A DNA stretch of 53,446 nt, the filler included, from Diploschistes diacapsis (lineage: Eukaryota), in assembly GCA_023645945.1 (NCBI GenBank). It is 3 parts of 3 records of this genome, joined end to end, with 100 filler letters (N's around TTAATTAATTAA, not from the genome) between each part and the next. Parts side by side here need not be neighbours in the genome. Positions count along the whole stretch, not along the records: positions 17,890 to 35,622 come from JALAIB010000438.1; 2 more parts are not named here. One strand, given 5' to 3'. A model generated the notes under the pieces. It worked only from the letters and a program-made list of their open reading frames with translations. It was not told the origin of the DNA and made no database searches. The position numbers and the translations under genes are program-made. Every line of letters starts with the position of its first letter. Position 1 is the first letter of the stretch. Of the stretch, positions 6,159 to 38,871 are shown in pieces.

Positions 6159-7351
6159 TTCACCCTGCGCGCTCTCGTAGATCTAGCGTTGAATGTGCGT
6201 GTCCCAACCTACAACTTATACAAACTACTGGGCTAAAAGCATTGTGGACTATTCTATACACATCCCCATGCTGCATCTAATGTTCTACTACTCAATTGCT
6301 CCATCAAAGGAATGCGGCCTTTCCCCCCCCCCCCTGTTGCGACATGCTCGCCCTCGTACCTCTTCCCACTCTCACCAGCGCTACTGCATCTGCTTTTCCA
6401 CATTTTTTATATCCCCCGTTGCCTCTCTACAAAGACACGATGCTTCCCGACCATATGTTTTCCGAGCCTCCCTTGCCCTGAAAAAGCTCAGCCACAGGCT
6501 GGCCAAAGTATTAAGACCAAACAGCGTTGTCGTTACATCGCTCCCTTTGGGTTCTCACCTCGCTTTCCCGCCATTCGACTGCAGAGACCTACGGGCGATT
6601 GGTAACAATAATCACAAGATTAGGATCAGGGCTACGAGTTGACAGAACGTTCCCGTTTCCCGGAATAAGCTAATATTGGTACTCAATCTGGCCCTCATAC
6701 CCTAAAAAGGTGCTAGTCCTGCCTTCCCTATCGACTTGGTCTCCTTGTTTGGGTCAACCTTCACTTATCTGTCACGGTCCCGCATCATCCCACAAAAAGC
6801 GGTCTTGCACCTCTGGTTCTGCTCCCTTCACCATCATCGTCTTCTTTACTCTTGCATACTATATCTCCACAGAAATACCTCTTAATAACCTCAAACCATC
6901 CGTTCATTGTCTGTTGGGACTTGAGTCTGTGGTTCAGAGTCCATCCAGGTCTGTCACTGAGAGCGATACGCAGTCAACACCGGCGCAGCATCTTGACAGG
7001 AAACCGCAACATTGAAAGAGGCTTCCCCAAAGTAGTAAAAAGACACAGGGTGACTTGGCATCGAACGCCGCTGTGGTACTTTTTGTCGCGCTTGGACTTG
7101 GCGGGCACTGCGCACCGATATCAATCAATTGCCCTAATCCGGTCTACAGACCCAGAGAAGAGGACTTGGCAGGCCACTTGAAAACTTCTTAAACTCACTT
7201 CCGTTACACTCTCCGTTGCGCTTCTGCAACTGCTCACTGTCTCCTGTTTCAGCTATCAACAGCTATATCACCTGCCTGGAAAGGAGCCTCACGTTACATC
7301 GGTTGTCCAACAGCCAGCTAGCCAAGTTTCTATCAGCAGAGCATCTTTACC

Positions 7352-11884: not shown

Positions 11885-12079
11885 ATACTTACTGGTTGAG
11901 TATACACTCCATATCCTCCTCCCCTTTACGTTAGACGGTAGCAAGTCGCAGAGGCGAGCTGCTCTACACATTCCTCAAGCACATTCTCCATATTACATCT
12001 CTTGTACCCCCTTTCTCGCCTCGTCACTATAGCCTAGCTACCACCTTGAGCACACACCTCGAAGTACTTAGCGTTCACC

Positions 12080-14917
12080 ATGAGCGACGTGTCAGATACC
12101 ACATGCCATTGTGGCCGCGTCGAGGGAGATGGAGTAACCTGGGCTGCCTGCGAGGCACCTTGGCACATCGGATTTGAGTGGGAGCATGCCGAATGCACGG
12201 GTTTCAGCAGCGATCAGATTGAGCGCTGGGCAGAGGAAGGAATCACCTATTTTTGTAGGGAATGCTGGTCATGCATGATCCAATGCTCTGAGTTCATTGC
12301 CAACAAGTGTCCGCAGTCCCGAGCATTCGACTTAGTGGCGTTCAAGAAACAGTGCAAAGGGTGCCCGCAACATTGCAACATTCTTGAGCCGCACGCACAC
12401 ACTGAAGATAACACTAATGGCGGGCCAGGCGCAGACGACGAGACTTCTGAGGATGGGAATGGAAAAGAAGAGTTCCATGATGCCAGCGAGCAAACCGATC
12501 AAGAAGGATCCAATGAAACTGATGAGACTCTTAGCGAATATGTAGACGATCAGGATGGTGAAGAGAATAGAGCGGCGGACGGCGAAGATGAAGATACACG
12601 GTGCGAGACTAACGACGCTGAGCAAGCCGAGATGGTGGCGGCTCACCTACAGGATGCTGAATCCAGTGCTGAATATGCTGAGAATCTGGAGGATCCTGGT
12701 GCCCAAAATGTAGAGAATGGAGTTGCCCACGGCGAAGACGAAGACGCACATGGCGAGACTGACGACGCTGAGCGAGTTGAGATGCTACAGAACGTCGGTT
12801 TCAACGCTGAATCTCTTGAGGAACGGGATGATGTTGATGGGCAAAACGTAGACAATGGAGCTCAGTACGACAACGCCGGAGAGCTCAACGAGACTTATGA
12901 AACAGAGCAGGCCATTGCAGCACCTAATCAGCAAAACGTCGAAACTCACCGCACATATCAAGGCACTACAGCACGTCTCCCGTGGACCCTCGAAAGCATT
13001 GACCAGCAGGAAGCGATTCTTGCACAGCAGCTTGGTCCACAAGAAGCTCGACGCATAATCAACAATTGTGTGAGAGGCTATCATGGGTTCCATCGATTCG
13101 AAGAGCGTCCTAATGTTGACATCGCCAATGCAAATCCTCTTGTTAACAACCGCCCCGCAACCTCTCCAGAACGTGAAGGACAGAACGAGTCCAACACCAC
13201 TGACACCCAGCCCGATCCACTCACTAGTGATGACGCTCCAGTCAATGACAACCAAGCAGCAAATACCTCGATAAATGATGTTCAACATGCGACTCCAGTC
13301 GATTCCCTTACTGCCAACGACGTTCTGGAAACAGCAGTTCTCCCACCCCAGACTGATTCACTCCTTCGCAACGACGCTCCGGCCAACGACAACCGATCAG
13401 CAGCTACTCCTTTTACCGATGTTCAGCATGCGCCTCCGTTGGCCTTGCCAGCTATCAACAACTTCGAAGAAGGAGCACTTCCAGCAGTTCTCCCAGCCGG
13501 TACCAACATTGAAGCTGCAGCGTTTGGTCTTTCTGCCGCTGATATAAGCCACTTGTTTGAGGAAGAAAACACCAGATTCGCAGATGCTATGTGGACCGCC
13601 CAAAACGAGACTGCAGTCCAAGAATCTATCAATCCTCGGGAAGTGGAGATGCCTAGGCGCCTTAGCAACATCGATCCTGAGTTTCAACGGATGATTGACG
13701 AAGCATACGAGGGCCTCAATATTCCTACCGAAGCGTCAGACAATAATGGCAATATTAGGACCGATGACTCGAGTATGTTCGAAAGGCTTCCAGTACCACA
13801 GCATCGACTCCCAATGCCTCACCTCGAAGAACCACAAAGAACCCGGGTCATACAGCGTCAACTCCCAGAGCCTCACGTTCAGAACGCTTCGCAAAGTCAA
13901 GTTCGGCCGTCTCAAGTCGCGCCTTATCAAGCGCAAGCGCCTGGAGTTCAAGAGTCGGGAGACTATCAGGGACGATACTCTTACCGCAGCTATGATGCGC
14001 AGCAGAACCAGCGTTCCAACGTCCCGGGCGCTCGCCGTAACTGGGCCTCTATCCAAAATGAGCCAAGTCCTTACAGGGCCCAGGACTTTTCGGATCCCTT
14101 CCCCGCCCTCACAACGGCACAAGGTCAGGTGCTACGGCACAGCGCCCAACTCCCACGCGCTGACTTAGAGCGGATGGAGATGCCACCGCCTCCTCGCCCC
14201 GCCAATTTCACCAGGGAGCAGTACCCGGACCTGCCAATGCCACGGGTTAGGCAGTCCTCGCGCAGGCAGCAGGATGCCGCCGTGGTGTCTCCACCTCGCC
14301 TCGACAACTCCTCCGGGGTGGTGTACCCACAGCTGCCAGTGCCGCAGGCCAGGCATTCCTTGCGCCAGCAGCAGGATGCCGCCCTGATGCCGCCTCCGCC
14401 AAGACCGCAGAATGCGGGTCAAGCTCAGGCTCCGACCGGTCGACCCTCGCTGGACGGGGTGGAGGATCTGGAGTCGGACAGTGAGGAGGGTGAGGAGGGT
14501 GAAGGGGGGCAGCAGCCGGTGAAGAAGAGGAAGCCGCAGCGGCCATGGGCGCTCGACTGGGATTTCATGACGGACGTCATGGTTCGCTCAATTGACGATC
14601 CGAGCCACAGGGGATGGTGCGGGGCCGACCATTATCGGTTGGCCTCAGACGAACTGTACAAGGCGATACAGTATCGGAGAGGGGAGGACTCCGTAAAGAC
14701 CTGGTGGAACCGAGACGGGAGGATACTTGCGGAGGAGAAACTGGGGAGGTCCCTCGAGGAGCGGCGCCCGACCAAAGATGGTAGCGCCAGGCAGCCAAGA
14801 AACTCGTGTCGCCCATCAAAGAGGAAGCTACCGGAGGAAGACCACGGTGACGACGATGACGGCAACGGGAATGGTCGTGTTACCAAGCGTGGTCGTCTTG
14901 GTAGCGCAGGATCTTGA
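12080..14917 (+). CDS. Hypothetical nuclear protein, 945 aa: N-terminal PHD finger, long acidic disordered middle, C-terminal Myb/SANT-like motif
   Basis: Single long ORF with start context CACCATG. C4HC3 spacing: CHC...WAACE...WEHAECTG...YFCREC. Basic NLS-like KKRK and KRK. C-terminal RPW...R.EDSVKTWWNR resembles Myb helix 3. Confidence 0.8.
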   Translation: MSDVSDTTCHCGRVEGDGVTWAACEAPWHIGFEWEHAECTGFSSDQIERWAEEGITYFCRECWSCMIQCSEFIANKCPQSRAFDLVAFKKQCKGCPQHCNILEPHAHTEDNTNGGPGADDETSEDGNGKEEFHDASEQTDQEGSNETDETLSEYVDDQDGEENRAADGEDEDTRCETNDAEQAEMVAAHLQDAESSAEYAENLEDPGAQNVENGVAHGEDEDAHGETDDAERVEMLQNVGFNAESLEERDDVDGQNVDNGAQYDNAGELNETYETEQAIAAPNQQNVETHRTYQGTTARLPWTLESIDQQEAILAQQLGPQEARRIINNCVRGYHGFHRFEERPNVDIANANPLVNNRPATSPEREGQNESNTTDTQPDPLTSDDAPVNDNQAANTSINDVQHATPVDSLTANDVLETAVLPPQTDSLLRNDAPANDNRSAATPFTDVQHAPPLALPAINNFEEGALPAVLPAGTNIEAAAFGLSAADISHLFEEENTRFADAMWTAQNETAVQESINPREVEMPRRLSNIDPEFQRMIDEAYEGLNIPTEASDNNGNIRTDDSSMFERLPVPQHRLPMPHLEEPQRTRVIQRQLPEPHVQNASQSQVRPSQVAPYQAQAPGVQESGDYQGRYSYRSYDAQQNQRSNVPGARRNWASIQNEPSPYRAQDFSDPFPALTTAQGQVLRHSAQLPRADLERMEMPPPPRPANFTREQYPDLPMPRVRQSSRRQQDAAVVSPPRLDNSSGVVYPQLPVPQARHSLRQQQDAALMPPPPRPQNAGQAQAPTGRPSLDGVEDLESDSEEGEEGEGGQQPVKKRKPQRPWALDWDFMTDVMVRSIDDPSHRGWCGADHYRLASDELYKAIQYRRGEDSVKTWWNRDGRILAEEKLGRSLEERRPTKDGSARQPRNSCRPSKRKLPEEDHGDDDDGNGNGRVTKRGRLGSAGS

Positions 14918-15164: not shown

Positions 15165-16660
15165 ATGGAGGACATTGATATGGACATTGACTTTGACGAG
15201 CCAATTGAGGCTACAGTGAGATCACCTTCACCTGCTACTGACTGGCTTGCATTGCTAACTTCACGTTTAGGAAGTGCACCCTGACTTCGACACCATTGCT
15301 GTTGAGGCAGTCACCGAACAGCCAGACGACTCAGCACTTGCAACCGATGAGCCGGTTCCAAACAAGATACACATCCGTGGCCTGGATGAGTTGACTACGA
15401 AAGACATCGAAGGCTACTCCGACGAACACTATCCATCTCAAAAGCCAAAGGTAGAATGGATAGACGGTGAGCCTGACCATTCCCATCCTAGACGCAGTCT
15501 TCCTTTTTGCTCACACTGCTCCTTTAGACACATCCGCGAATCTGGTATTCGCTGACCCCGACATAGCGCTGGAAGCTCTCACTTCGCTTTCCGTTACTTT
15601 CAACAGCTCCCTCCCGCATAACCTCCAGCTCCGCAGCGCGAAGCCCTCATCCGCACATCCCTCCTTAGACCTCCAGGTTCGTATAGCCACGACCACCGAC
15701 CGTAAACCTCTCCGCGCGCACGCGCGGTCTCGATTCTACATGATGCATCCAGAGCACGACCCGCGCGAGCATCGCCGCCAAGACTCCTCTACACCTCGCA
15801 CCAACAACTCCCGTCGAAGCGACCGCTCTTCCAGACGCAGGCGCTCCGTGGAACGTAATCGCTTCGACGAGTCCCTCTACGATGACACCTCCGAGGCCCG
15901 CAACCGTGCAACAGCACCACGTGCCCATCATCGCCGCAGCCGACGCGGCTCCCGCTCTTCCATCTCCTCAAACCTGCATTCCTCACGCTCTGACTCTCGA
16001 GCCCGTGACCGCAGCGCCTCTCCCACCCGCGCCAACAATGCCCGCCGCACCGACCGCCGCCGCACTCCCCCACCAATGCGCCACTCCCGCACCAACCCCA
16101 ACCCCGCTACTCAGCGTGAGAACCTTGGCAAAGAGCTCTTCCCCAACGGCGCACCCTCCTCCTCGACTACAACCAGCAACAAGGCCGCCGCAAGCACCAT
16201 CAAGAAAGAGCTCTTCCCGCACCTCAAGTCCCGCTCACACCCCAGCTCGTCCTCATTCCACCGCCGCACACAGTCCATTGACGTAACGCACGATACCAAC
16301 ACCACAACCTCCGAGGCTCTGGCCTCGAGCCTAGCGACAAAAATGGTGACGCCCCTAGTCGACGGCGTTGGTTCCGACGAAGCTTCTTCATTCCCGCTGC
16401 GTTCCGACGGCATGCGGGTAAAGAACACATCTACAAGCACTGATACCAGAAGCAGAACGGTCGCCAGCAGTAATGTGGGATTCAATATCCGGGGCACAGC
16501 GAGTATGAACTCGTCGCAGGGCATAGGCTTTACTATCAGAGGCACGGCGGAGCAGAGGGTCAAGGAGCTTTTCCCGGTGAAGGTGGGGAACAAGGGGAAG
16601 GAGCTGTTTGCAAATAAGAATAAGGGCATGGAAAGGAAGAGGGCGGATATGTTTTACTAA
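15165..16660 (+). CDS. NCBP3-like (DUF2414) RRM protein; exons 15165-15215, 15271-15466, 15528-16660
   Basis: Splicing two GT-AG introns gives KIHIRGLDELTTKDI...KVEWIDDTSANLVF...LQVRIATTTDRK...RSRFY; R/S-rich middle and repeated KELFP motifs. Confidence 0.85.
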
Positions 16661-18829: not shown

Positions 18830-19515
18830 GTTCTTGGAATGGATGGTATAGTATTGAATGCAGAATTAGCAAGAAGAACGTAGTCGGAGACCTGAATAGA
18901 TACTGTTACCGTATCTTCCAGTCCATGAGGCTAAAGGTTAATTGGTAAGAATCAAGGACGTCATGCTAACAGGGTGACTTCGCGCCTGCTTCTACAGTAC
19001 TAGGCTAAAAGTAGGAATCAAAAAAGTTTTCGTCTAGCCTTTATATCTCTGCTGAAGTGTCCTTAAAAATTCGGAAAAAAATCCTAAGCTTTTTAAAGCT
19101 TTGATTTAATTCTCCTAATTTTTCTTTATTTGTATGTATAAAGTTGGGTCGATTTCGGAAACGGGGGGATCTAATTACTTTTGGTAGTATACCTTACCGT
19201 GGATCTCGGGAGCACTTCCGGCCTCTACCAGATCCCGATGCTAAAGGCGCCGCTCTTGATTGGCTTATCCCCCTGTGATTTCGTCTCGTATCTCAAGAAG
19301 AACCGAAAGGCTTGACAGCTTTTCTTCTTGAAAACATGTTACATGAGACGGAGATTTCCCGTTCTGAGGTTCCAGGGTTGTGTGTATCGGGTCAGAAGAG
19401 CACGTTAGAAGGACACCAGAAGGATAAATGCACTTCCAACACTTCGCAATAAATCATCAATACAATGTTGCCGCTGCAATATTTTCACGCCCCTTGACCA
19501 AACTGTACCACTTCA

Positions 19516-20022
19516 GATGTCCTTCTTGAGATCCTTCACATCATTCGTCAGCCATCTTTCGAGAAGGTGTGCTGGACCTTGTTCTCAAGCCCTTTGATCG
19601 GGTCTGACAGCATCATGGGTCCGCTTTTTGGATGAGGCAACGAGTTTCCGACCTTTGGCTTGTTCTTGCCCTTGACGTACGGATCCATCTGCTTGATGGC
19701 CTTGGCTCCTTTGTCAATGAAGTCGCCCGGACTCTGCTTCATAGCCTTCAATATGCGTGTCTGCAGCGCGTGCGCACCAGGATATCGTCGCCTAGCAGGT
19801 CACTGGCTCGTAGTTGCTCGATGCAGTACTTCGCTACCGGGTCGGTAAAGGCGTCCGCTGAGCGAGCGCAGAGGCCGAGATCGTTCATTGCGGTTAGGCG
19901 TCGGCAAGGTAGGCGTCCCGAGCGCAGAGGTCGTAGCCATAGCCGTCGTCGTAGTAGCTGGCAGCACCGAGAGAGATGTTGCTGGAGAGAATAGCGAGGG
20001 CGAGAGTAGATGTGAGACGCAT
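19516..20022 (-). pseudogene. Probable disrupted small secreted (prepro-peptide-like) gene
   Basis: Signal-like MRLTSTLALAILSSNISLGAA followed by YDLCARDAYLADA* (stop at 19894); a second LCARSADA in another frame; a Lys-rich segment ILKAMKQ...FSKDG* in a third frame. Confidence 0.45.
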
Positions 20023-21632
20023 TTTGGAGGCTTTGGCTGATCTGCTTTGGAGGGTATAAACAAGGGATAGGATGGGGCTTCGATGTCTTGTGCTCTCTAA
20101 ATTTGTATTCTTAGGTTTTTTGATTGATATGGTTCTAGTCATTCATATGCTGGACAGCTGCTTTATCTAAGAGTCACAATCCTAATAGTGGTTCTAGCGC
20201 AGACCCCATTGAGCAATGAGTGCTCTGGGAAACAGGCCGGTCCGCATGCCATACCGAACCTGAAGTGAGTTGCATCCTGTTGTTGGGAGTTTGTATACGC
20301 ATGCGGCCCGAAGGACCCAACTTCGGGCAAGCTTTGAACCTGTTCCTTGTTCGTACTGTCCGGGCTGAGCTTCAGTTTCGGCTACTTGGTTAGTTGTAAA
20401 AGATTTCCTCAGATTGAAGGCTTGAGTGTCTTTGTATGATGTTGTTGGTCATTTCTGTATAGGAGTGGGGTGAAGTTGCATGAGGATCGAGGCGTGCTTG
20501 GTATCGCCCAGATTCCTATAAGGAGGCAAATGAAACCTCTCGACCTCGATGAGACTTGACCGTTATCTTTGACCAGCCCAGCGCGTCCTATCTTCAGTAC
20601 TGCTTTATTCCAGATTTCCTCTTCATGATAATTTTTCAGTTGAATGGTTGGTATACATGGCATTAAGCATCGACGTCCAGGTATGACATCCATGGCTCAC
20701 TCACGGTGCTTTTTGCGCAAAGATGCTCTAAAGACGAACGACGCACCAACTAAGCAAGGCAATAGCATCCAGGAACCACTGCCATGAGTCGTTAAACATC
20801 TCGTAAATAAGGATCAGGAACGTCTGTTGTACCTTGTAATCAAAGTCCTTCCGAAGGTTAGCCGGACCTCAACTTACCTTCTTCACCAGCCCCTTGGCTT
20901 AGTGTACCGTGACTGATTCAGCAAAAATGAGTTATGGATGCTTTCCTTCCTAGTCAGCAAGGTTTCGATTACGCATGGCCTGAAGGAAGACCCCTAAATT
21001 GCTTCGGAAGGGGGGAATGAATATTCCCGTCGGTCAGAGGCGCTTTATTCGGAACTCTTGGGTTCAACCTGTCGATCTCGAGTAACAGACAAATGTTGCG
21101 GTATTGGACGCTACAGAGCGCGCCCATCACACTGGGCGTTGTTCCAGGCTGTAGACGATAGCAATGACATAGCATGCTGAAATCAGGATAGGCGAAAATG
21201 AAGGAGTCCAAGTACGTAGTTGGCGATGCAAGTCTTCCTAACCTTCTTACCCAAGATCTCTCTTCCTAGATCTCAGAGCCATGTGCTGAACCAATCTCTA
21301 GGGATGTGTAGTGTCCCAAGCATGGACTCAACCAGCGCAAATGCTGTTCCGAGCATATGCTTCCGTAGCAAAATCGCAGTGTCTCCGCAAGTATAGTCTC
21401 TCACTAGAATTTATAAGCTTCGCCTACTTATAGTTGCCGATTCTCCTGCCAATCTCTTTATACCGAGGAATCGCCACTTTTTACACACTAGAATTGGCTC
21501 ACAACGCCATTTTCATAAGCTTTGAGCAGCGCCAAAAAGACAGCCGAGAACGCACGTAGTAAAGTCAAACATCAAGCCCAGCGATTGCATGGAGGATATC
21601 GAAGCAGCTCTCCATACAGGGGCAGCCATGAC

Positions 21633-24600
21633 CTACGTTATAGACCATTTGAGGTAAAATGCAGGCATCAGCAGCGCCCACAGCGCCGCAATAGATCCGC
21701 ATATACCCGTTGCACCCTGCACATCGCCTGACGCACTCAAATACGCCACAGAAACGGTCATGGCGACTGCTGCTACAAACATTGTAGCCCAGAAGATAGC
21801 GCTCCGATTTGGCCCCTCGACGATGCGGATGCCCCAGCCCTCGGTGAGGGCTTCCTCAAAGCCGCCCTGCCTGCGTGGGCTTGAAGATACGGTGGAAATA
21901 AGGTGGATGCTCGTTTTGAGCTTCGTGGGAAGACGACTGAGCCATTTGCGCTGCCTGTGCTCTTTTTGGGAGTTCAGATAGTGTAGGAAGACTTCCTTTG
22001 GCATGCAGGGCTTCTCAAAGCCATAGAGCTGCCCATTAATCGCTTCTGAGGACGGACAGCTTGGCTCGGCGAGGATGCCGACGAATTGCCGCTCTTCTAT
22101 ACAAAACTGTTTCCCGTCAGTATCGGGCTGCCTCGCCAAGCCCAGCTTACATACTTTAATGTATGAAAGATTCACCGGTTTGAGCAGGAACAACCATCGT
22201 CGGAAACCGCGGAGCTCGTAATAAGCTTTGCGGATCGCCTTAAAGAGTGCGCCATCGTTCTGGATCTGGCGAAGGTGAATCTCATTAAGCTTCACAACGT
22301 TCTCGCCCTGGTTAATGCAGAGCTCCAGGAAAGAGAGTTGGGGAGTGCAATGCCTAAGTATTGATGCTGCAGTCTCTGGGTCGGAGGTGCTAGAAGATGA
22401 GCTAATCGAGGTAGCTCCCGTAGACTTGCTACTATCACTTCTACTGCCTACGGATAAAGATTCCGAGTCCTCATAAGAGCTTGACGATAGAATTGAATCC
22501 TGCAAGCGAGGCGGTTCTGCGCTTGCACTAGGCGCAATGGTGCAGCCGGTCGCATTTGCCTCGGTAGCATCAATACCTTTGGCAAGGCAAGGGGACTTGT
22601 CCAGTTCACTCACAAGGTTTTGGAACGCCATAAAATCTCTCTTTGGAACGTCTACTACAAGAACTTCTCCACATTCCTATATATGGTTTAGCTTCATTAT
22701 TCATATGCTGGACTAGGGTTCTAACACATCGCCATCTTATCCTTCGGAGGCCAGGTCCAACCGGCCTAACAATATCGTAGACAGTCCGAGACAGCCTCTG
22801 ATATTTGCAGCATAGAGCTTCCATGAGTGGTGCGTGTGCCGTAGTCTTGTCGTTCGAACTACTCGCGGTAGTATCCAAAGCCTTAGTCTGATCTCTGGTA
22901 CCCTCTCTTGTAGGATCCAAGGTTTCTGATTCGATGCTCTCCTGTCCGCAGTCTGTTTCACTATATCCTTCAGCTTTCAGTCTGTATCGATCAGACATAT
23001 CCTTAATGTCTTCACACATCGCTTCAAACGGCCCGTCCTCAAGCAACAAAGCTTGTATTGCTTGCAAGGCGCCTGGGTCTAACCGCTGTCGCGGGGACTC
23101 CGGATCCGGCAGTAGGTTCGACGACGAAGGTAACTTGTATGTGCCATGTATAATCTCTCGAGGCCCGATTATTTTTATCTGATCTTGTTGCCCTCTGAAG
23201 CAACTAATAATCTCTCTGACAATCCACTCCTGCCATTGCTTTATCAAGTCAAGGGGTACCAAAGGTCGAATGTTGCTATTATTAATAGAACTAAATTTTG
23301 GAAACTCGAAATTGAAGTTGTTGCTAAAGTCCCGATTCGCACTAGAAGAGAATGGTTGGCCGATGGTTTCGAACGTGGGGGAGCTTCCGTTCGTGCTTGT
23401 CTTCAAGGCCACATGTTCTGGATATTCTTTGACCTCCACCTGGAGTTGATCAATCTGTGCTCGTCGCAAGAGGCCGTACTCATGGTTTGAGAATTCTGAT
23501 GCCTTTTCAAGCTCTTCAACTGTCTCCTCAAGATCTTGCAAGTGCTTTTCTATACGCTCCCGGAAAACAAGCTGCGCAGCTTGGTTTTGAGCTTTAAGTT
23601 TCTGCGTCATCAAATCAGTATTCTGATATTGAGAACTCGGTAGCTAGGAGCTTACAGTGGTAGGTTTAGACGTAAGAGGCTTGCGATCAGGCTTTGGTGT
23701 CTGTACTGTGCTGTTTCTAGCCTCGGTGTCCTGTATCTTACTTTCTCCATCATTTCCATCAGGATGGTCAGACTTCATCCAATTATCCCTGATGATTGAT
23801 TCTTCCGCCTTGTTTTCAATTCTATGAATATATAGATTCAAAATCTCTGTCAAGGCTGGGACGAAGTCTTGAGCAAAGGCGTATTTGAAAGCTTCCTTGG
23901 TTGAAGTTAGGAACCTGCCATCGTCTAAGAAAATGGCCAAGATCTCTTGGCCTATATCCCTATCGACAGCAGTGTCGAGACCGTAGCTCGTTTCACTAAG
24001 GCTTGATTTGTTGTTCAATAACATCTTCTGACGCGCTTTTAAGAGAGCATGGCCCGCATTCTCAGGCAACAGCGTCTGCTGGGGGTGTTGTAGAGGCTTG
24101 TAACGAAGCGCTCGTTTTTTGCCATTCAGACCGAGTTCAGACTCTTTCCCTCCATTCAGTGTTGCTTGAGACATCATATTGTGATCCTCACCAGCTTGCT
24201 TGTCGCCCTCGTGTTCTGCGTTTGTAGGTGTCTTGGGCAAGACTCTATCGCGGTAGGAGTTGGCTAATTCCGTTTGCAGTCTTGTTATTCGGTCCCTGTA
24301 AGTAACGCTCTACTTCGTTAGCAACTCAACTTCAACAGATGTTAGTGGCTCACAATCGCGCTCAACTTCTCTTCTTCGCTGTGCCCGGGAGGCAGAACTC
24401 CTTGCAAAAGAGTGCAGGCTGTAGCATATGCTGTGATTGCGCCCTCAAAATCGCGATCGTTGTCTAAAGATATAGCTCGATTCGCTTGATCAAGAGCACG
24501 AGACAGTAGTTTCTTCCGAGAGGACGTTGTTTTTGTATGGCCTTTATTCCGGACCTCCTTGGTTGAGACAAAAGTATTGGGTATAATTGAAGTAGATTTT

Positions 24601-26041
24601 TGTAGCGATGCCCGAAACTCACCGAACGGTTCCTGCGTATCTGGCAAAGCATTAGGAGATTCCAGAGTATCTCCATTAAGCGTGTCTCCATGAACCGAAG
24701 CAATCCTCTCTTCCGAAGATACTGGGAGCTCTCGAAGCCGCCAAGAGTCTGAATGCAAGGATGCTTCTGATTTCTTCGTGGAAAGCTTCTTTTTGACTCC
24801 TTGTTCTAGTGTATCGTAGTCGTATGGTTCCCGGGTTGGTTTATCAATTTGGGTGGAATATTCTGTACCTTTCTGCTCTTCCTGCAACATACTTTCAAAT
24901 TGCGCAACGCAGAGCTCTTGAAGAGTCTCGATCTTAACCGGATCTCTTCGCGCGGATACCGTCATCATCAAAGCATGTAAATCTACTAATGGAGCATCCA
25001 GAAGAAATTCTTGAATTGCCTCTGCCACTTTGGGTCTGTCACTCAAATGGTGCGATATATATATAAGCTCATCTTTAAAGGTTTTCAAGGTAGGCAAGTC
25101 TGGGTCAGTCGATCTGAAAAGCACAGATTGATGATCTATCGCTTTCGACAGCACCTCGTTGTGGGTAGGAAGTTGGATCTCGGCGCGATGATTCATTGCT
25201 GCTTGACGTGAGCTTCCGTATATAGCTTTATGTTAGGTGATATGCATTTACCTAGAGGCTTCGTCTTCTTTTCCGACATGATTCGAGGGCTTCGCAGTTC
25301 CTCCATAGAACGAGGCGGAAGAGCTCTTGTGTTCGTGTGAGGACCCTCATCCCAATCCATGCTCAAGCCTTCTAACCCTCTGGCATCATCAGGCAGCTCC
25401 GCAAGATCTCTTACCAGTGGCATGGTAGAAGCTTCCATGAGTGAATGAAGTTCCTTCTCCTGAGATCGTAGTCGTCCCCATGGTGTCCATCTGCTCAAAC
25501 GGAAGTCGAATCTCCTGTTGGTTGTTCCCTCCACTTCCGATCCCTTTTTGCGCTGTCTCAGGCCCATCCTGCGCGCGACCGGGACTGCGGGCTCAGCAAG
25601 CCCTTTCGTAATAGATGGAAACTTGGTTCTGCTGAAATTGTTTGGATCGTGAATCGGACTGTCGCCTTTGTAGGAATTTGGGTCAAGTGTGACGGCGTGA
25701 ATTGATTCATCATAAACATACTTAGCGGTTGGGTGTATGCCATCGGCCAGCGCAGAGTCATTAACTGGCTTCCAAATTTCCGCAAAGGCGTCGCTCCCGT
25801 GTACGACCGAGCAATGTCCTTGGAAATCCTTATATTCTCGGAACAGCCTCCGACGGCACTCTTTAGCAGGACAATAGAACCCATCAAACTCCTCGAACTC
25901 ATCCTTAACAATGCCTTTCCCAGACTCTACACTGGGCAATGATCTTCCACTAACTGTGGATCCCGGCTCTTGGGGAGTTACAACGTCAAAGGATTCGGAG
26001 TACTCTTTGGCGAGATCATTTGGGACGCGTCTCTTTGGCAT
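21633..26041 (-). CDS. Mosaic ~1386-aa protein: C2H2 finger, MIT-like domain, degenerate Yap1/AP-1 bZIP fragment, uncharacterised C-terminal module with two TM helices; exons 26041-25252, 25198-24354, 24309-23656, 23601-22726, 22676-22155, 22106-21633
   Basis: Five consecutive same-strand ORFs are joined in frame by 44-54 nt GT-AG introns with branch-like motifs; exon sum is 4161 nt. Junctions read PL(A)MNH, AI|SVTYRDRI, KPTT|KLKAQN, RWRC|ECG, YIK|FCI. Confidence 0.82.
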
Positions 26042-26318
26042 GTTGAAAGCGTAATGGAGGATACTAAACCAGAAACAGCAAGCTCAGAAGGCGAATACTC
26101 AGATAATCCTAGAAGAGCGCGTAAAAGCACATGCGCAAATCGCAACATTCACATAGAAGCATAAGATGACAGACATGAGGTTATCGACAAGAACATAAAG
26201 CCACCTACCAGTCATCTCATTCGATACCTTCTAAAACTCTACGCACTGCCCAAGGCTACATTTTGAGGCTCAAAACGAAAGTGAAAAAACGCCTCGCTAA
26301 CTGCAACCCTAGAACGCA

Positions 26319-26339
26319 GTCACATGATCATCACGTGAT
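26319..26339. promoter_or_regulatory. Tandem E-box-like sites ~290 bp upstream of the mosaic gene
   Basis: GTCACATGAT immediately followed by the palindrome ATCACGTGAT (bHLH-type core). Confidence 0.35.
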
Positions 26340-27312
26340 TGATTCCTAACCTTGCACGAGGAAACGGTTTTGTTATCCACGACCTTGAAGGGCAACTACC
26401 TGAATCCAAAAATTGTAACGCCCCCAACCGCAGAAAGACTACCGAGTATATCAGCTCTCCCTCTCCTTAAGGCGTCCCCATTCAGCACCGCCTCACGAAT
26501 AGCAATATCGCGCAGCATCAATCTCTCGTAAGCTCCCAACGGCCCAGCCACGCCCTACGCACACGTGTTACAACTTACTCACACCTTTCTCATATCCCAC
26601 GTTGTCGCGATCCTACCATACCACCGTCCATCATCCACCATCTCCGACAGTCTCCTCGAACCTCACTTCCTATTTTTCGCGCAAGAACAGCCACTTACTT
26701 CGCTTGGCTGTGAAGTCAACTGCCTGCAGCTGAATATTGCCGGTGGCATGCGCATTGCGGCCCCTATTTAACGGACTCCGTGTGCTGTGCGGGGCTTACG
26801 GTCGTAACTTCTGCAGCCGAGGTGGGTGGGGGCGAGTTTATGTGTGTTTGCTTCGGATGCGAGATGGCATCGATATGGAGAGTGGAATGGGATGTATGCA
26901 TTCTGGGAGGGAGAAGTGATATTATTCTCACATAGGATAGGCAACAGAAGGCAGCTCAGGAGTGAGAATAGGCAACCGGACATCGAGAATATCAGAGCTG
27001 CTTCAATTACTCAACTCCACCGTGAAGCGGCGTCATTGAAGCATCGGTAAGGAAGAAACGGTCTAGAACGGTCCTTTCTGCGGTAACAGTAGAAAAATCC
27101 CTAAAGTTCTGTCCAGCTAGATACCCTGCGCCTGTAATGACATGAGCGACCCTGGTAATAATAATAATAATACGCCAAGTTTTGAAGACAATTGGAAAGA
27201 AGCTCAACAGACCCATAACACCGCATATAGAACCGCCTATAACACCGCCTATTATATTCCATGCTTCGTAAGAGCAGTCTATGCCGACATGAAAAATCTC
27301 ATGCCCCAAAAA

Positions 27313-29358
27313 TTAGTCCTCACGCATCCTGATCATCCTCAGCCCAGAGTCAATCTGGTTGACAAAGTTATTCTGGGTAAATTCGCTCCATGTAGTGCAC
27401 GTCTCCGGGAGGATAGCTGGGATGCTGGTGTCATTTGTATAAATGCCCTGAGGCTGCTCCAATAAGTTGACGTAGAGGCCAGCGCTGACATGCCAGGCGA
27501 TGTGGCAGTGGAAGGGCCAAATGCCAGGGTTGTTCGTCTCGTAACCAAGAACGATATAAGATGGTTCAATCACGGTGCAATCCTTATTTTGACAGATGCC
27601 GGGTTCGAGGACTTGCACATCGCGGCGCTGCGGGTTTGAAGGGTTCTTGACGTTATAGCTACCGTCCCATGTACCGTTGCCAGCAGCAAGAACCCAGAAA
27701 TTGTGTCCGTGCAGATGCATAGGGTGGGCGATGGGGGATGAATTGATAACGTGCAGTAAAACAGAGCTGTTTGTGCCAAAGTTGTAAACGTTGCGTTGGG
27801 GGTCGAAATTGAAATTGCCGTTGTAAGCGTCAAGAAGGATAGGGTCGTTGTAGTCCGTGCGAAAAGTCTGACCGTTCATGTAGAAGAGTTCGTTGCACGT
27901 TGAGTTATCGCCGACGGTGATGTTGATAACCTGCTCAGTAGCGAAGGTGGAAGGAGGTGTCATGGAGAAGGCAGGCTCGGCTAGGTCTAGCTCTCCGGAC
28001 AAGCCGGAAGTTTTGCACAAGTCTGTGACATTCTGTGGGTTATTGCTAGGTACTGAGTGTGTATCTGCATTCGGATAGTAAATTGCGGCCAATCCTGTTC
28101 CTTGCTGAGCAGCTGAGCAGCCAGAGCTGGCATTGGCGCGCATCCAGTAAGAACTACCAGCATCGCCGGTACCAGAAACCAGAATATCCATTCTTTGTCC
28201 GACTCCCAGGGTAACAAAGTTTGCTGTGTAGGGTTGGATAGGAACGAAGTCATTGGCGATGACAGTCAGGTTGTGTTGATCGATCGAGAAGTATAGAATG
28301 GCTTCTGCACTAGGGTTTATCAATCGCAGCAAGTGAGTCTTTCCCGTTTGGAAACGGAATTTCGAAAGGCCAGCATTAGGACTACAAGTATGCTTTTCGA
28401 TATCAACTTCAATAAGAGAGCAATCGTAGTCCATCTTGCCATTGATTAAGGTGTTATTCGAGAAAACAATAGGCTGCGTGGGCTCAACAGCCTGCTCCAC
28501 TAGACGGTAGTAGTCTTGATGATTCCAATCACTGATCATCACAGGGCCGATGTCAATGTCATAAGGAGCGCTGGAAGGGCCGTGGATAATCATTGGTCCG
28601 AAGGATCCACCAGCGTACTGGGCCGAAAAGTGGGAATGATACCAGCTGGTGCCATAAAGATCTGCTGAGAAAGTATATACAAAGTCCTGCTCCGGTGCGA
28701 TTGGACATTGCTGAACGCCAGGGACTCCGTCAAAGTACGGGGTCTCCTTCTGAAGTAGACCATGCCAATGCAGGGAAGTGCCCTCCTGATCGACAGGAAT
28801 GCCATCCTCAATCGCGTTTGAGATGGCGTTGTGGACCGTAACTTGAATCGTATCGCCCCAATTTGCCTCGATCAGGGGTGCGGGAAACTGATCGTTGATG
28901 AGCAACATCGAGCGATTGACACCATCTGGGCTCAGCACGCCCCGAGAGATGGTGAAGTCGTAGAATCGAGTAACTCCGGTGTCCGGAGGAATCTCAGGAT
29001 TTGTATTACCGACGGTTGCATTACCCCAAGGAGCAGTGGCATGACGTGGAATGTGCCGAAACGGAACGGAACCTGTCGTATTCTAGGTCTAAGTTAGAGA
29101 AAATTCACAAATTCTCTTCAATCAACATACCTTTGAAGGTAGCCACTTTGGTAGGCCCGGGAATCTTAAGGTTCCAAAGGTCGATTTGCCATTGGTCTGG
29201 GTTTGACTTAGGCTCGCAGTCAATGAGTTTGACGAGGTAATGTTAGCGATCAAAGAAGTATTCACTCGCTGCACCTGTGGGGCGGGAGGGCAGGTAAAGT
29301 TGGATGGAAGGAGTGTGTAGTTCGTCGCGCCAATGCTAGCTGCGAGTGAAACAGCCAT
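27313..29358 (-). CDS. Multicopper oxidase / ascomycete-type laccase (AA1); exons 29358-29131, 29082-27313
   Basis: Copper motifs HWHG, WYHSH, HPMHLHGH and HCHIAWH-x4-L (Leu axial position); DTGVTR.YDF N-terminal motif; C-terminal DSGL plus short extension; 48-nt GTATGT..CTAAC..TAG intron. Start codon uncertain. Confidence 0.96.
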
Positions 29359-32300: not shown

Positions 32301-34251
32301 TGGTTTGGATGTGTCATTCACTTAGCAAACCTGTGCCCTACTAGCCTCTCTACTTTCGCAGAGTCTGAATTCTTGGCAAGGCACTGCCAATGAAAGTTCA
32401 TATGGGTACAGCTTCTCGTTCCCACAATAGGCAACAAATTCCGACAGGCTGCAAGATCTACCTTCATCCAAACATGAGCCATTAAGCTTAAGATACTTTG
32501 CCAAAAGACTCAAATTCTAGGCGCTGCATATTGCCCACTACAGGTGTATCATACCACTTTTCGGGTCAGTCAAGGGACATAGCAAGAATAGGCTGTCGCC
32601 GGTTATCGTCGTGTAGTTTATCAAAACACGAGGTTGCACCAACTACAAGGATGCTCTAGGGTCGCATGAGGGCCCGCAGAGTTGGCTCTGGCTAAGACCC
32701 GTCAGCAATGCCGTCAACTGATAATGCATGGACATGTTCGCGAGCGTGGCAGAGTGCGCATGGAACAATGTAAGACGAAGTCCTTGCACACTAGTGGCAA
32801 AATCCTTGTGAGGCGCCGCGAACAACAGGAGCGTCCATTGATGTATTGTTCTACTGAGGTTTATTAACATGAGGTATATTGATACATACGCAGGACATGT
32901 ACAATGGCCCCATCTGATTTTGCATCGCCACTCAAGTGGCTAACGCAACAGTTGCGGCTGACCTGGCAAGCCATTTATTGGCACCTCGCTTATCGAAGCG
33001 CAAGTTGCAGTCAGCAACTGGCCATGCGAAACCCTCAAAAGACAACCTGATCAAGTTTCAGCCGATACGAACTATAAACAGCACTCTGATAACGAGTACA
33101 CATGATTTAGTGGCTCAAACGATAGTTTCCATAAGTTACCGAAACACAGCCCAAATCAATTCACTATTCTACCACTAATAATCATGATTCCGGAAATCGA
33201 CCCATAGACACCAGAAGCCTGAGGAAGGTTTGGTGCCAGGATTTCATATAGATCCACCATGCACCCTCATCCGAAATATTTATTGGAGGCTAGGAGGTAA
33301 GCAGTGGCCCATGGAGATGTATGGGAAAAGCCCTTACAGAAAGTTGGGGCGTGATTAGAAGATTGCCACGCACCAGCGTAAGAAGGCTTTGATCGCCGGG
33401 AGCAATGACTTCGAGGGCTCCGAGATACTGCAACGCCGAAAAATCCCCGTCACTGTATCGTAACAACTTGAAAGAGGGAAATCCGCTTCTAGGAATGTGG
33501 TTTGAGATAATACCCAGGCTACATAGGACTCTTGTAAGGTCTGGTATGGCAGAGAAGAATCCTTCCAACACCGACGGATGCAGACAAAGATTAGGAGAGC
33601 TGGCTATGCAAGAAACGGAGGATAAGAACCTCCTTTTCGCCTTTCAAAGCACACATTTTCAGCCCATTCGAGTCTTGATCTCGTTTCGATCCACTGCGCG
33701 GTAGAGATGAAATAAAATACGAGGTCTATGATGGATGGATGGCTTCTTTTCTTTTGCGATGGATTTGCGTGAAGTCATGCATCTCTGTGATGATTGGCTG
33801 TGTTTGCAACAGAAGACTTGGAAGATGGACTCATGTTTTAAATCAGAGCCACGACTTTTTCTTCTTCTTTGATCCCTCTTTCTGTTGTCGAGGTGCATTT
33901 CCTTTCCTCCTCGTCCATTCAATCAACCTACGCTTATGTTCATCACTACGGTACGTTGGAAAGAGATGATCTAGCTACCGGGACTACTTGTTGTTGGACG
34001 CAGGGATGATCTACTGGCAAGACTGGTTTTATCATACTATTGATTATAAGAATGCCTGGCTAATCTACCCGATGATCGCTCAATCTTCCGAAAGCCTCCT
34101 TTCCTAGCGATGCGTTATTCGTCCCCTCTATTGCTGCAGGTTTACCTAACAACTTAACCACTACCACCTACCATCTCCAATCTCACATCCCTCATCTCCC
34201 CTTCCTCTTCTATCCATCAACCTAAAAACTACCCACCCGAATCTGAAAACC

Positions 34252-35831
34252 TCAAACCCAGCTCCTCCTCCCCCTGCTTCCTTCACTCTCCGTCTCGATC
34301 TTCCTCTCCATCTCCATATCCATCTCCATCCTCCCACCCCTCACGCCACGCCCCGCTCTCGGACTGCCCATCGGACTAGCACACTGACCACTACCCTGAC
34401 AAACACCCCGACCCCGAGCCACCATCCTACCGCCCCCAAAGTACGTCTCAACCCTCTCCCGCGATCCAGGGCTAGGGTGCACCTCGATGCGCACCACGTC
34501 CTCCACGTCCTGGTCCATTGTCAGTACCACCTTCAGGCCCTTCTCCCTCTCTCGTTCCGTTTCCTTTTCGGCGCGGTCAAAGGTGCCATCACGGCCGTCG
34601 TATCTTTCCTCTACAGCTGCAGATCGACCTTGTGGCGATAGATTCGGATACTGAGCGCCCTTCCGCCATCCACGTGGAGAACTGGTCTGCGTCTCGTGGC
34701 GTGCGTAGGTTGAGCTTCCACACTCGGAAGCAGTACTTGGAGGCGGTGTCAGCGGATCACACTTCCCCTCTCCATACCCTTTGATCGCGCCAGGAGCCGT
34801 CGCTCCACGCAGGCCAACAACAGGCTTCGGAATGCGGGACGTGCTTCTCTCCGCCGCACGCGGACTGAGGTTCAGACCCGACGAGATGCGCACGTCGATG
34901 GACTTGCGCTTTTCCTTGCCCTTGCTCTTGTCTATCGCTTGCCCCTGCTCTGCGCTGTGACTATGTAGATCGGCGTCAACAGCGGCAGCAGCAGTGCCCT
35001 TCACGACTCTAGCAGCCGGCAACCTCGCACCTTCCCGCTCTCTGCCAAACAGCTTCTCGAATTCGAACACCGGCAACTGCATCCTCTTACCCCCGTGATC
35101 TTTGGGGACCGGCATCGCCATCTCAAAAGGCATCGCCAGCCTCAGCGGGAGTCTTGCCATTTTCTTCGGTGTCGGCAAGTGCAGCTTCTCTGCTCTGTTC
35201 TCCTTGTCCCCTTCTTCTACCCTCTCTACTGTAGATCCAATCTCGTCCCAAGGCCCGCCCTTGGCTAGAGCGCGGTACGAGTACAACAGCTCCTCCGTGT
35301 CTTCGGACATCCGTTTCCCATCGCGGCCGTAGGCGCGCCTCTTGTGCTCGAAGACGCTCGTGGCGCGAGAAGCTGCAGTCGACGAGGATCGCGTGTCGAA
35401 GGTGCCGTCGCCGCCAAAGGCTGGTGCAGAGAGTAAATCGACTGGTGCCCCATCTCCTGTTTCAAGTTCGATATCCGCCGAAGAAAACCTCGCGCGCCAG
35501 TCTTCTATCCCTTTCCTCTCTCTCTCCGCTTCTCTTGCTCCTTCATCCCCATCCCCATCATCGTCCTCTGTCCTGGCAGCAGAATCAATAACATCATCAC
35601 CACTCACTCCCCCAACCCCATCNNNNNNNNNNNNNNNNNNNNNNNNNNNNNNNNNNNNNNNNNNNNTTAATTAATTAANNNNNNNNNNNNNNNNNNNNNN
35701 NNNNNNNNNNNNNNNNNNNNNNGGTCTTTAGGGGGGTTTAGGCTGGAGGAAAGGGAAAAGAGAAGAGGAAGGCAGGAGGGAGAGGAGAAGGTGGCGTACA
35801 GGGCACTGTCGAATTGGGTGTCGGAGGACAT
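34252..35831 (-). CDS. Hypothetical low-complexity protein, probably spanning the 35623-35722 gap
   Basis: 451-codon open frame with G-ending codon bias runs into the gap; on the far side GCCATG at 35831 opens a frame (MSSDTQFDSALYATF...) that stays open to the gap. No domain recognised; the join is inferred. Confidence 0.6.
35623..35722. other. Assembly gap with six-frame-stop spacer
   Basis: 44 N + TTAATTAATTAA + 44 N. Confidence 0.99.
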
Positions 35832-36361: not shown

Positions 36362-38871
36362 CTATCTTACATGCTTTAGTCTCCAAGTCGCATACGCCGC
36401 GCCTAATGAACTCAACCCTCCAATGAACATGCAAACACCAATCGCATTCCATCCTTGTGGCCCATCATCCGCATGGTCTCTTCGCAAAAGCATCATCCCA
36501 AATGCTTCTGTTCCGCGGCTGCTCTCAGTTGCATTTTCAACTCCGATGCCCCCACCAAAAATTCCAGTATCGTTATGCGCGTGGCTGCTTTCGCCCCCGG
36601 CCAGCTCTCGACTTTTGCCTGGCTCAACGATGGCAAAGACAATGAAGTTGATAAGGGTGCCGAGCAACTGGGGAGCAGCAGCGTATAGGTTGAGGATACC
36701 CAGGTACACACCAGCTGTTTCACCGGTAGAGGCATCTGCCGTGAGAGGATCTTCGCTCAGTAAAACCCCATTCGGGCCTGTGCTAGAAGCCAGGTCGAGC
36801 CCGTTTAGCTCAAGATCGGGCTCTTCCTCTTCTTCTTCTTCATCCTCCTCTGGCGTAGTCGCTTCATTCGGTGAGTGCAAAGGAGTGTGTTCGTGATTGT
36901 AATTAATGTAGAGCTCGATTGGAGATGCAGGCTCGGGAGAGTGCGCCAGTTTCGACTCCTCTATTATCATGCCGTCAGCACCATCCTCGTCTTCGTCGTC
37001 ATCGTCTTCGACCCGCGCGCGATGATACGCTGCGCCATTGGCATTAGCCAGCGCAGTGCCATCTATGGCGACAGAGTCGGCAGCATCCGGTGTGGCAAGG
37101 CGATTGATTTCGACGCCCATAAACGAGAAAGGAGCCCACGTGGCCAGAGCCCAGGGGATTCCTGATAATGATACTACCGTTGTGGCGAGTTGAAGAGAGG
37201 TAACGAATGGAGCAAGGAGATTGGCACCTGCAAAGATAAGGTGGGAGACGAGCCAGGCATTCAAGAGCGATGGCTTGCGATCATTGAGATGCTTCAGAGA
37301 AGTGACGAGAAAAGCTGGAATGTGCGATTTCTTCGACGAAAGAGCTTTGGGATTGGAACTCGACTCTGGGGAGCGGATGATGGGTGGGAGGATAACGGCA
37401 GCGGCGAAGGATATTATGGAGAAAATGACGAGCGAAAAGGAGCCGATACGCCCAATAGCACCAAGTTTATCGGTTATACCATGAAGCTCTTCGGGGTCGG
37501 TATAGCTAAGAGAATGTTCAGCCGCTGGGCGAAATTGGATGATGATGTGGGGTCTTTTTCATACCGAAAGTAAGTTTCACCAACCCAAGTTGGACTGTAG
37601 AACAGGAAAGAAAACCAGCCTTTTTGATATGTTAGACTTGAATGTTTGGGCAGAAATGCTTGATAAAGTACCTATCCACGCCCAGAATTGAACCCAGCAA
37701 ATTGCTTGTATTCGATTTGGTAGGTGGAAACATGTCTTGAAGAGCTCAATAAGAACGCGCAAAGGGCCCGAGCCCTTTTCATCAATCCTAACAGCTTCTC
37801 AGCATGTTGAACCGTCATGGTTATGCCTCAATTATCAATGGGTATGAGACTTGTCTGACCTTGGAGAAACCAGTACGCGCTCCTGTGTTGCCCAGGCTGT
37901 GAGACCGCAGCATCCTGTGAGGAACAATGCGGCTAGTATGCATAATTGCTTGAATTGGGTATTACCAAGCCAATCGCCCCATAGACCTGGTAGGTCCAGT
38001 GTTCCAATAGCATAGCCTAGCAAGCTCCCAATGCTTGCTAGTCTGCTAGCTAGAAACTCTCAGATCTCCTCAACCGGCTTTAGGAAAGCGTTCTTACCCC
38101 AGGCAGATCCAGATTGCTGCTTGGCGATCGGCAATGTATCCACGATGAGACTTCGACTTGCGGCCATGACTTGCAGATCCAGATTAGCCCCATGCACATA
38201 TGCAAGGCTTCTCGACGGACTCACCGGCGTTGATTGAGAAATCGACCGCGTAAATCATTGCAACAGCAACCACAATTGCCCAAAAGCCGGCCTGTCGCTT
38301 TCTGTAAGCCCACGTCGAACACTTTTTTTTTTGCACAATTCCTCATACCGAATCATGGTCTTTGTTGAACAATCTAACGATCTCGGCAGCCCATGCGAGG
38401 ACAATAAGGCAGGCGGATACAAAGATTGACCCGCCCATCATGAATGGCCGTCTCCTACCCCATTTCGACATCGATCGATCCGCAATTGCGCCCACAATTG
38501 GCTGAACTATTATGCCAGAAAGAGGTCCAGCGACCCAGACTGCAGACGTTTTGCTCTTCGTGAGGCCAAGCGACAGCAGATACGGTGTACCATCTGCACA
38601 GTATTACTTAGTGCTCGTATACGATGGATACGGGAACGCAGGTATCTGCAGGAAGCGACGAACATGTCATTTCGACTCCCCATGTCAACCTAAGAAACAG
38701 AGCAATCAATGTTAGCCTCAGAAGCGTTTCATGTGGTCAGCCGTTAAACGTTTAGGCTAATTGAGCAACTTACGAGATGCCGACCATAGAGAATGTTAAC
38801 AAGGTCATGCGAAGAGCCTCTGTAGAGCCCTTGATGGAGGGCGTACCCGACCATGACGCTTCCTGAGGCAT
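36362..38871 (-). CDS. Sut1-like sucrose/alpha-glucoside transporter (GPH family, MFS), multi-exon
   Basis: Exon translations include W.GTPSIKG..EALRM.LLT, VWVAGPLSGIIVQPIVG.IADRS.SKWGRRRPF, RSLIVDTLP..QQ.GSAW, QFWAWIG, WAPF.FMGVEIN and AGVYLGILNLY..PQ. Confidence 0.92.

Follow-up and report, generated by a model that had tools for sequence, protein, structure and literature searches.

The gene considered here lies on the minus strand of a 53,446-nucleotide stretch of DNA from the fungus Diploschistes diacapsis (assembly GCA_023645945.1), in which parts of three records are joined end to end with filler; this whole stretch is referred to as the window. Positions 21633 to 26041, within the part derived from JALAIB010000438.1, accommodate a single predicted gene of six exons, whose product harbours an MIT domain, a diverged piece of the transcription factor Yap1 and, at its C-terminal end, a conserved module with two predicted transmembrane (TM) helices. 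The model was built by joining the long open frames of the minus strand (five, 26083 to 21633) at canonical splice sites. Its predicted coding length is 4164 nt, equivalent to 1387 codons and a single terminal stop, and is otherwise stop-free. Introns 1–5 measure 50, 44, 54, 49 and 48 nt, respectively, and all are bounded by GT..AG and contain CTRAY-like branch sites. An earlier interpretation made from the sequence alone (hereafter the sequence-only reading) had described six exons that remain in frame for about 1386 codons, and this description is upheld. The features of the gene are collected in Table 1.

Table 1. Features of the predicted gene, in window positions.
Feature	Position	Strand	Basis and remarks
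Whole predicted gene, six exons	21633..26041	-	open-frame and splice-site model
Exon 1	25252..26041	-	gene model; start ATG at 26041; no detectable family
C2H2-like pattern C-x4-C-x13-H-x4-H, residues 57-81	25799..25873	-	pattern only
Exon 2	24354..25201	-	gene model; first ~230 residues without detectable relatives; MIT helices 1-2 at its end
MIT domain, split by intron 2	24247..24506	-	PF04212; third helix (start of exon 3) read by eye
Exon 3	23656..24309	-	gene model
Yap1-derived segment (from the final 13 codons of exon 3, across intron 3, to codon 108 of exon 4)	23278..23694	-	corresponds to Yap1 residues ~154-272: basic region, zipper, FEFPKF
Exon 4	22726..23601	-	gene model; residues 109-~270 of no assigned origin; last 18 codons (22726-22779) open the module (RP.GPG.RRIRWRC)
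Conserved C-terminal module (Cys motif, Ser-rich linker, beta-grasp-like domain, TM hairpin; holds introns 4 and 5)	21633..22779	-	sequence relatives, conservation, models
Exon 5	22155..22676	-	gene model
Juxtamembrane soluble domain, ending in the GWGIRIVEGPN strand (21807-21839)	21807..22379	-	confident predicted model
Exon 6	21633..22106	-	gene model
TM helix 1, residues 1332-1357	21726..21803	-	hydropathy 2.02; modelled helix 291-316 of the 347-residue query
TM helix 2, residues 1362-1382, preceded by the short GDVQGA loop	21651..21713	-	hydropathy 1.75; modelled helix 319-346

The gene model can be trusted fairly strongly, because introns 2, 3 and 4 split recognizable homology and the position of intron 5 matches insertions in homologues. 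Intron 2 (24310-24353) interrupts the MIT domain, intron 3 (23602-23655) interrupts the Yap1 homology at a conserved yap1 intron site, and intron 4 (22677-22725) falls immediately after the first cysteine of the family motif RI.W.C.CG, which is unbroken in homologues. Intron 5 (22107-22154) is in frame and stop-free, and several homologue predictions display an insertion at exactly the same point, as if the intron had been read through. Four of the five junctions are therefore independently supported, the junction between exons 1 and 2 being the sole exception. Nine homologues (P0005, P0009, P0012, P0023, P0041, P0053, P0065, P0077 and P0103) contain 13–25 extra residues at the intron 5 site; many public gene models of the family probably retain this 48-nt intron by mistake, and many also begin downstream of the intron that follows the W.C motif.

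The base composition of the exons resembles that of the recognizable genes of the window insofar as the GC content of first codon positions exceeds that of second positions in all six. At third codon positions (GC3) it is lower, with values of 0.42–0.62 (0.42–0.50 in exons 1–5) as opposed to 0.55–0.79 in the conserved genes of the window. There is no signature of repeat-induced point mutation, the corresponding indices being normal, and no second copy of the module or of yap1 was found elsewhere in the window. Capture by a transposon-type mechanism was considered and rejected, as the interval 19000-29000 contains no meaningful direct or inverted repeats.

A search of 1.84 billion representative sequences with the 347-residue C-terminal translation retrieved 405 relatives at E<=1e-3, of which 101 at E<=1e-10. 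Their lengths span 98 to 1517 residues, and the match always ends at the C-terminus of the protein, the tail beyond the GWG motif having a median of 68 residues (86 proteins). The motifs RI.W.C.CG, ELC.N, F.H, RLP.KL, GWG....EG and D.QG recur throughout the family, and the conserved C-x-C, Cys and His residues might together coordinate a metal. Among 30 full modules, 28 columns are at least 85% identical and 27 of these are kept in the window copy; the W, C, C and G columns of this alignment were fixed by the selection pattern. Named members belong to Lecanoromycetes, Sordariomycetes, Dothideomycetes, Leotiomycetes and Pyrenula, and all are annotated as 'hypothetical' or named after a fused domain. 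No Pfam model exists for the module, an Atlas look-up returns Ascomycota hypothetical clusters of 270–390 amino acids (aa) with scores of 0.95–0.96 and low recognition, and no description of it is apparent among the papers listed by literature searches, as judged by titles and the beginnings of abstracts. On sequence grounds, the module is a real, as yet unnamed family of Pezizomycotina, and the C-terminal motifs listed in the sequence-only reading prove to be conserved family-wide.

Hydropathy analysis reveals only two hydrophobic helices in the entire 1387-residue protein, both at the very end of the module. As these two terminal helices are the only ones, everything N-terminal to them would lie on the cytosolic or nucleoplasmic side of the membrane. 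The AlphaFold model of the whole module has a mean predicted local distance difference test (pLDDT) score of 75.8, with values above 90 across most of residues 110-347, and the soluble domain modelled alone reaches a pLDDT of 84.6 and a predicted TM-score (pTM) of 0.80. The modelled domain is of mixed alpha/beta type, and its final strand, GWGIRIVEGPN, runs into the helical hairpin. Foldseek searches with the module and with the soluble domain gave no match at E<=1e-3. A fold search with the whole module recovered generic helical hairpins only (Z<=7.7), and one with the soluble domain recovered beta-grasp or ubiquitin-like domains (Z<=4.3). The comparison with pore-forming folds that had been proposed alongside the sequence-only reading has thus been carried out, and no such fold occurs among the matches, although weak or missing matches do not exclude one; nor does the gene contain any Pfam match to HeLo, HELL, SesA or gasdermin-like domains.

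What precedes the module differs from protein to protein. In a sample of 151 module proteins, 45 carry the W.C..CG motif, and the number of residues ahead of it is at most 60 in seven, 61–200 in seven, 201–500 in 18 and more than 500 in 13. Long front ends, exceeding 200 residues in 31 of the 45, are therefore the rule among complete models, and many of the short 'stand-alone' entries appear to be fragments beginning past the conserved intron. A Pfam census of 49 long members (48 module proteins of at least 400 residues among the matches listed, plus P0001) detected front-end domains in 14: NDT80/PhoG in three proteins, Myb in three, C2H2 in one, ankyrin in four, CorA in two and HET in one. 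DNA-binding domains (NDT80, Myb and C2H2) occur in half of these 14. A further match, to SesA, is sub-threshold in one relative (E 0.013). The Myb-bearing members from Trichoderma also possess, at looser thresholds, an intact-looking bZIP basic region; their architecture of 781–799 aa recurs in four annotations from different strains or species, and two other named members of the same cluster are shorter, at 593 and 467 aa. Fused domains in the relatives are often whole, as exemplified by a full-length NDT80 and by this bZIP basic region. Paralogues with different front ends coexist within one species, for example in Trapelia coarctata, Elasticomyces elasticus and Trichoderma. The picture of a constant module with variable front ends, as the sequence-only reading had it, is borne out by the 405 relatives, by the invariable C-terminal placement and by the census of front-end lengths and domains; no single fixed architecture is seen among the homologues. 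The first ~980 residues of the window gene are common to none of the 151 module proteins.

The front end of the window gene includes the Yap1-derived segment. The first 108 residues of exon 4 match a 665-residue AP-1-like factor with bZIP_1 and PAP1 domains at 59 positions (55%; E 1.3e-20), and the last 13 residues of exon 3 agree at ten positions with the 13 that lie just upstream in Yap1. Exon 4 has only three matches among longer proteins, and all are canonical Yap1 factors carrying PF08601. The Pfam match to bZIP is itself weak (E 0.056), and the best solved relative is the bZIP of Pap1 (1GD2, E 3.7e-4). The Yap1-type bZIP segment noticed in the sequence-only reading is confirmed by this homology.

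The homology crosses an intron, and a comparison with 80 yap1 loci from metagenome contigs places that intron at a native site. In 38 of the 80 loci a phase-0 intron separates ..PTT/S from K(R/K)KAQN, which is precisely the site and phase of intron 3; the other 42 are uninterrupted, and many of these are contigs of ~2.5 kb that may be transcripts. Of the 16 contigs that exceed 10 kb, 13 carry an intron before KRKAQN; the long genomic contigs L033, L041 and L048 harbour yap1 without it, indicating that this intron is lineage-specific within yap1. As the homology runs across intron 3 at the native site and phase, the Yap1 piece is a copy made at the DNA level with its native intron kept. The other end can be placed as well. 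In 64 of the 80 loci FEFPKF follows in the same exon after 91–102 residues, the spacing is the same in the window gene, and the yap1 exon continues for hundreds of codons beyond it; the 3' breakpoint consequently falls inside a yap1 exon. In all, ~410 bp of yap1, including the phase-0 intron, sit between the MIT-domain region and the module. The gene is a true mosaic, as the sequence-only reading had it.

This piece has changed considerably, and in a biased manner. In a comparison with 71 unique Yap1 segments, in which positions 1-10 are fixed by the search pattern and free evidence is provided from position 11 onward only, 24 of the 32 positions that are at least 90% conserved in Yap1 are kept in the window copy, and six of the eight lost are Lys or Arg. 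The first 23 residues contain five Lys and Arg residues, as against a minimum of nine among the 71. In the alignment with 1GD2, the equivalents of Pap1 Arg82, Arg87 and Arg91 have become Leu, Gln and Leu, respectively, and three further conserved lysines are lost; the RxxxNxxAQxxFR signature is accordingly incomplete, with NxxAQxxFR kept and the leading Arg replaced by Leu. PMC7261193 assigns base reading in Pap1 to Asn86, Ala89, Gln90, Phe93 and Arg94, contact with a flanking guanine to Arg82, and contacts with the phosphate backbone to Gln85, Arg87, Arg91 and Arg96; it also reports impaired binding when the Yap8 residues equivalent to Arg82 and Arg87 are replaced by alanine. The equivalents of the five base-reading residues are all retained in the window copy. 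The zipper displays four heptads in register, followed by a one-residue insertion, and no exon matches the cysteine-rich redox and export domain PAP1 (PF08601) at E<=1. In a tree of 77 segments, the terminal branch of the window copy measures 0.74, whereas the median for Yap1 sequences is 0.11. A branch of this length without a stop or frameshift suggests that the reading frame is under selection.

The remainder of the front end is much harder to trace. The MIT-like domain of the sequence-only reading stands: PF04212 is matched at E 3.4e-7 with 30.7 bits, above the gathering cut-off of 30, and exon 2 covers profile positions 1-44 of 66, with a third of the domain past intron 2. Its donor gene was not identified by comparing exon 2 with proteins of 155–494 aa, where no relatives were found, or with PDB sequences, where there was no match. 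The lone C2H2 finger, by contrast, amounts to a motif pattern without profile support: its spacing, C-x4-C-x13-H-x4-H, departs from the canonical C-x2-4-C-x12-H-x3-5-H and does not conform to PF00096, and no zinc-finger Pfam match appears in the exon translations at E<=1. The Atlas look-up of exon 1 gave a best score of 0.88, under the lead threshold, and no family was detected. No NACHT, NB-ARC or other nucleoside triphosphatase (NTPase) domain and no sensor repeats were matched by Pfam in the six exon translations. Altogether, ~850 of the first ~1050 residues are without traceable origin, and about 60–65% of the N-terminal residues are of disorder-promoting types.

The mosaic is surrounded by genes for, among other products, a multicopper oxidase and a short-chain dehydrogenase, and none in the window is immune-like. 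The upstream neighbour (27313-29082, minus strand) encodes a three-domain, laccase-like multicopper oxidase and is open for 589 codons. At a distance of 13 kb, 7322-8494 (plus strand) encodes a two-repeat Myb DNA-binding protein; Myb is also fused to the module in other fungi, and no link between the two is shown. A serine carboxypeptidase S10 gene occupies 43419-45275 (plus strand) in a GC-rich stretch (0.62), and the 417-codon open frame on the opposite strand (44031-45284, minus) is probably a by-product of composition. Four further open frames, at 12050-14917 (+), 15464-16660 (+), 34252-35670 (-) and 36362-37558 (-), extend for 955, 398, 472 and 398 codons, respectively, and have no Pfam match at E<=1e-3. 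GC skew is strongly negative in the 1-kb bins 6001-7000 (-0.32) and 34001-35000 (-0.31), unlike in the rest of the window.

The explanation that accommodates these observations best, and to which we attach about an even chance as a whole, is that the locus holds one real and intact gene as predicted, a lineage-specific member of a Pezizomycotina-wide unnamed family, in which a module serving as a membrane tether is preceded by a captured piece of Yap1. The module would tether variable regulatory front ends, often DNA-binding in the relatives, to a membrane. These front ends would either be kept inactive until they are set free, in the manner of SREBP, Mga2/Spt23 and MYRF, or do their work at the membrane itself. 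The front end of the window gene was assembled by recombination at the DNA level. The window protein itself is unlikely to operate as a redox-switched DNA-binding factor; its zipper would more plausibly provide a dimerization or Yap1-pairing element at the membrane, making the protein a tethered, DNA-binding-impaired relative of Yap1, with the MIT domain as a possible connection to ESCRT-III. Fungal proteins combining NDT80 with transmembrane segments have independently been proposed as a new class of membrane-bound transcription factors in a 2026 paper (PMC13294678).

Several observations weigh against the tether. Neither a cleavage site nor a motif for protease recognition is seen, and there is no sign of an autoprocessing domain of the MYRF type. 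No orthologue of the same architecture was found with the module, exon 2 or exon 4 as queries: among longer proteins the module query recovered a single Trapelia protein, 26% identical, and exon 4 had no match among metagenome contigs. No recognizable N-terminal domain is present in 35 of the 49 long relatives, and the ankyrin, CorA, HET and weak SesA front ends fit poorly with a family consisting purely of transcription factors. Moreover, the architectures of the relatives are automatic gene predictions, some of which may be false fusions. A look-up of accessions in a supplement of PMC13294678 gave no match, leaving any link between its proteins and the module family putative. The beta-grasp likeness of the soluble domain is weak, its best Z being 4.3, the insertion in the zipper may prevent pairing, and the ten positions fixed by the search pattern narrow what the Yap1 comparison can say.

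Part of the same evidence could be read as the signature of a young or neutral chimera, in which an accidental fusion onto a module gene has stayed open by chance or recency and the added parts have no function. Exons 1 and 2 and most of exons 3 and 4 have no orthologue or relative in very large databases, the low GC3 of exons 1–5 sets them apart from the conserved genes of the window, and the N-terminal part is rich in disorder-promoting residues. Nevertheless, a functionless Yap1 piece would hardly be expected to diverge so far, to 55% identity and a branch of 0.74 against 0.11, without acquiring a stop or frameshift, and its intron is still canonical; the losses are biased to basic residues, with those that read bases kept, the MIT domain remains above the Pfam threshold, and 27 of 28 conserved columns of the module persist. 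We consider this account fairly improbable. More doubtful still is a mis-joined model, in which exon 1 would be a separate small gene or upstream open frame and the protein would start at the ATG of exon 2, or in which alternative transcripts would skip the module. The suspicion arises at intron 1, which, unlike the other junctions, is spanned by no domain and has the least canonical of the five donors (GTAAAT); if it is left unspliced, the stop of exon 1 overlaps the ATG that opens the exon 2 frame. On the other hand, this intron is bounded by GT..AG, has a CTCAC branch-like site and a typical length and restores the frame when spliced, same-strand genes that abut without intergenic space are unusual in eukaryotes, and exons 2–6 are bound together by four introns that domains or continuous frames span.

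Two further readings concern what the module does. A tether acting in place, anchored in the inner nuclear membrane or the endoplasmic reticulum (ER), would let its front ends bind chromatin or partners without release, and MIT would recruit ESCRT-III. Some nuclear-envelope proteins combine a domain that binds DNA with an anchor at the C-terminus, and the relatives likewise place DNA-binding domains ahead of a C-terminal hairpin; the MIT domain of the window gene and the lack of any cleavage or autoprocessing domain detectable by Pfam point in the same direction. Yet neither Pfam nor fold searches reveal a likeness to known nuclear-envelope proteins, and the DNA contacts of the window Yap1 piece are weakened, so that we grant this variant only a slender chance. 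The sequence-only reading had favoured an integrated-decoy sensor, in which the module serves as an executioner acting on the membrane or as a signalling unit, degenerate Yap1 and MIT are baits that mimic those host regulators at which antagonists aim, and tampering with them triggers the module. The constant module with its variable front ends, several of which can coexist as paralogues within one species, agrees with this idea, as do a Yap1 copy that is selectively degenerate yet in frame and the two relatives bearing HET and weak SesA matches. Against it, the gene contains no NTPase or repeat sensor domain by Pfam, no pore-forming fold emerged, HET is found in only one of the 49 long relatives, and the window offers no immune-type neighbours. 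Of the proposed variable bait fragments, the degeneracy of the Yap1 copy is substantiated; the notion of baits sits badly with the fused domains of the relatives, which are often complete and functional-looking. As these are frequently whole DNA-binding domains, a membrane-tethered regulator fits better than degenerate baits of an immune decoy. We regard the decoy sensor as very unlikely, and give equally little credence to its broader version, in which the module would be the constant output unit of an undescribed, NLR-free surveillance system of Pezizomycotina, with copies of the regulators of the fungus itself (Yap1, NDT80, Myb and the ESCRT-binding MIT) as baits, and would turn tampering with these into a signal or an event at the membrane.

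Should the module prove to be a general tether, filamentous ascomycetes would possess a large unnamed family of membrane-held transcription regulators whose front ends can be exchanged, with sequence clusters numbering in the hundreds. This would be an added layer of gene control, hinted at by one 2026 paper alone and only for NDT80 (PMC13294678). The window gene would provide a clean natural case in which a domain was captured as DNA along with the donor intron, and in which the DNA-binding helix of a stress regulator has been selectively stripped of backbone contacts while the frame was maintained.

Known systems resemble the window gene in part. Plant nucleotide-binding leucine-rich repeat receptors (NLRs) with integrated decoys similarly combine a constant signalling part with variable pieces of other genes, one of which is here a degenerate copy of a regulator; however, the window gene has no nucleotide-binding domain, leucine-rich repeats or sensor repeats by Pfam, and its constant part is a membrane hairpin module with no genetic link to immunity. 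In common with MIT proteins such as Vps4 and PalB, it carries an MIT domain that exceeds the Pfam gathering score, although here the domain lies in the middle of the protein and not beside an AAA ATPase or calpain domain. The relationship to Yap1 and Pap1 is evident from the identities on both sides of intron 3, from the shared intron site and phase and from the retained NxxAQxxFR. In contrast to these factors, the window gene has only ~120 of ~660 residues, without the Yap1 N-terminal region or the PAP1 redox and export domain; the equivalents of Arg82, Arg87 and Arg91 and three lysines are lost, the zipper has an insertion, and the piece is embedded in a predicted membrane protein of 1387 residues.

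Membrane-bound transcription factors, including SREBP, Mga2/Spt23 and MYRF, likewise unite a regulator part and membrane helices in one chain, and relatives of the module carry NDT80, Myb together with bZIP, or C2H2. The hairpin anchor of SREBP leaves its whole soluble part on one side of the membrane, as the module hairpin would. The window gene, however, is not homologous to any of these factors; it lacks the autoprocessing domain of MYRF, and its bZIP is impaired. The module proteins of Trichoderma, namely the P0017 cluster (T. simmonsii, 'BZIP domain-containing protein') and P0018 (T. citrinoviride, 'p53-like transcription factor'), have intact-looking front ends, bZIP with Myb or NDT80, that are unrelated to that of the window gene, and the identity between the modules is 37–38%; even so, they share with it the same C-terminal module, the same motifs and the same position at the end of the protein.

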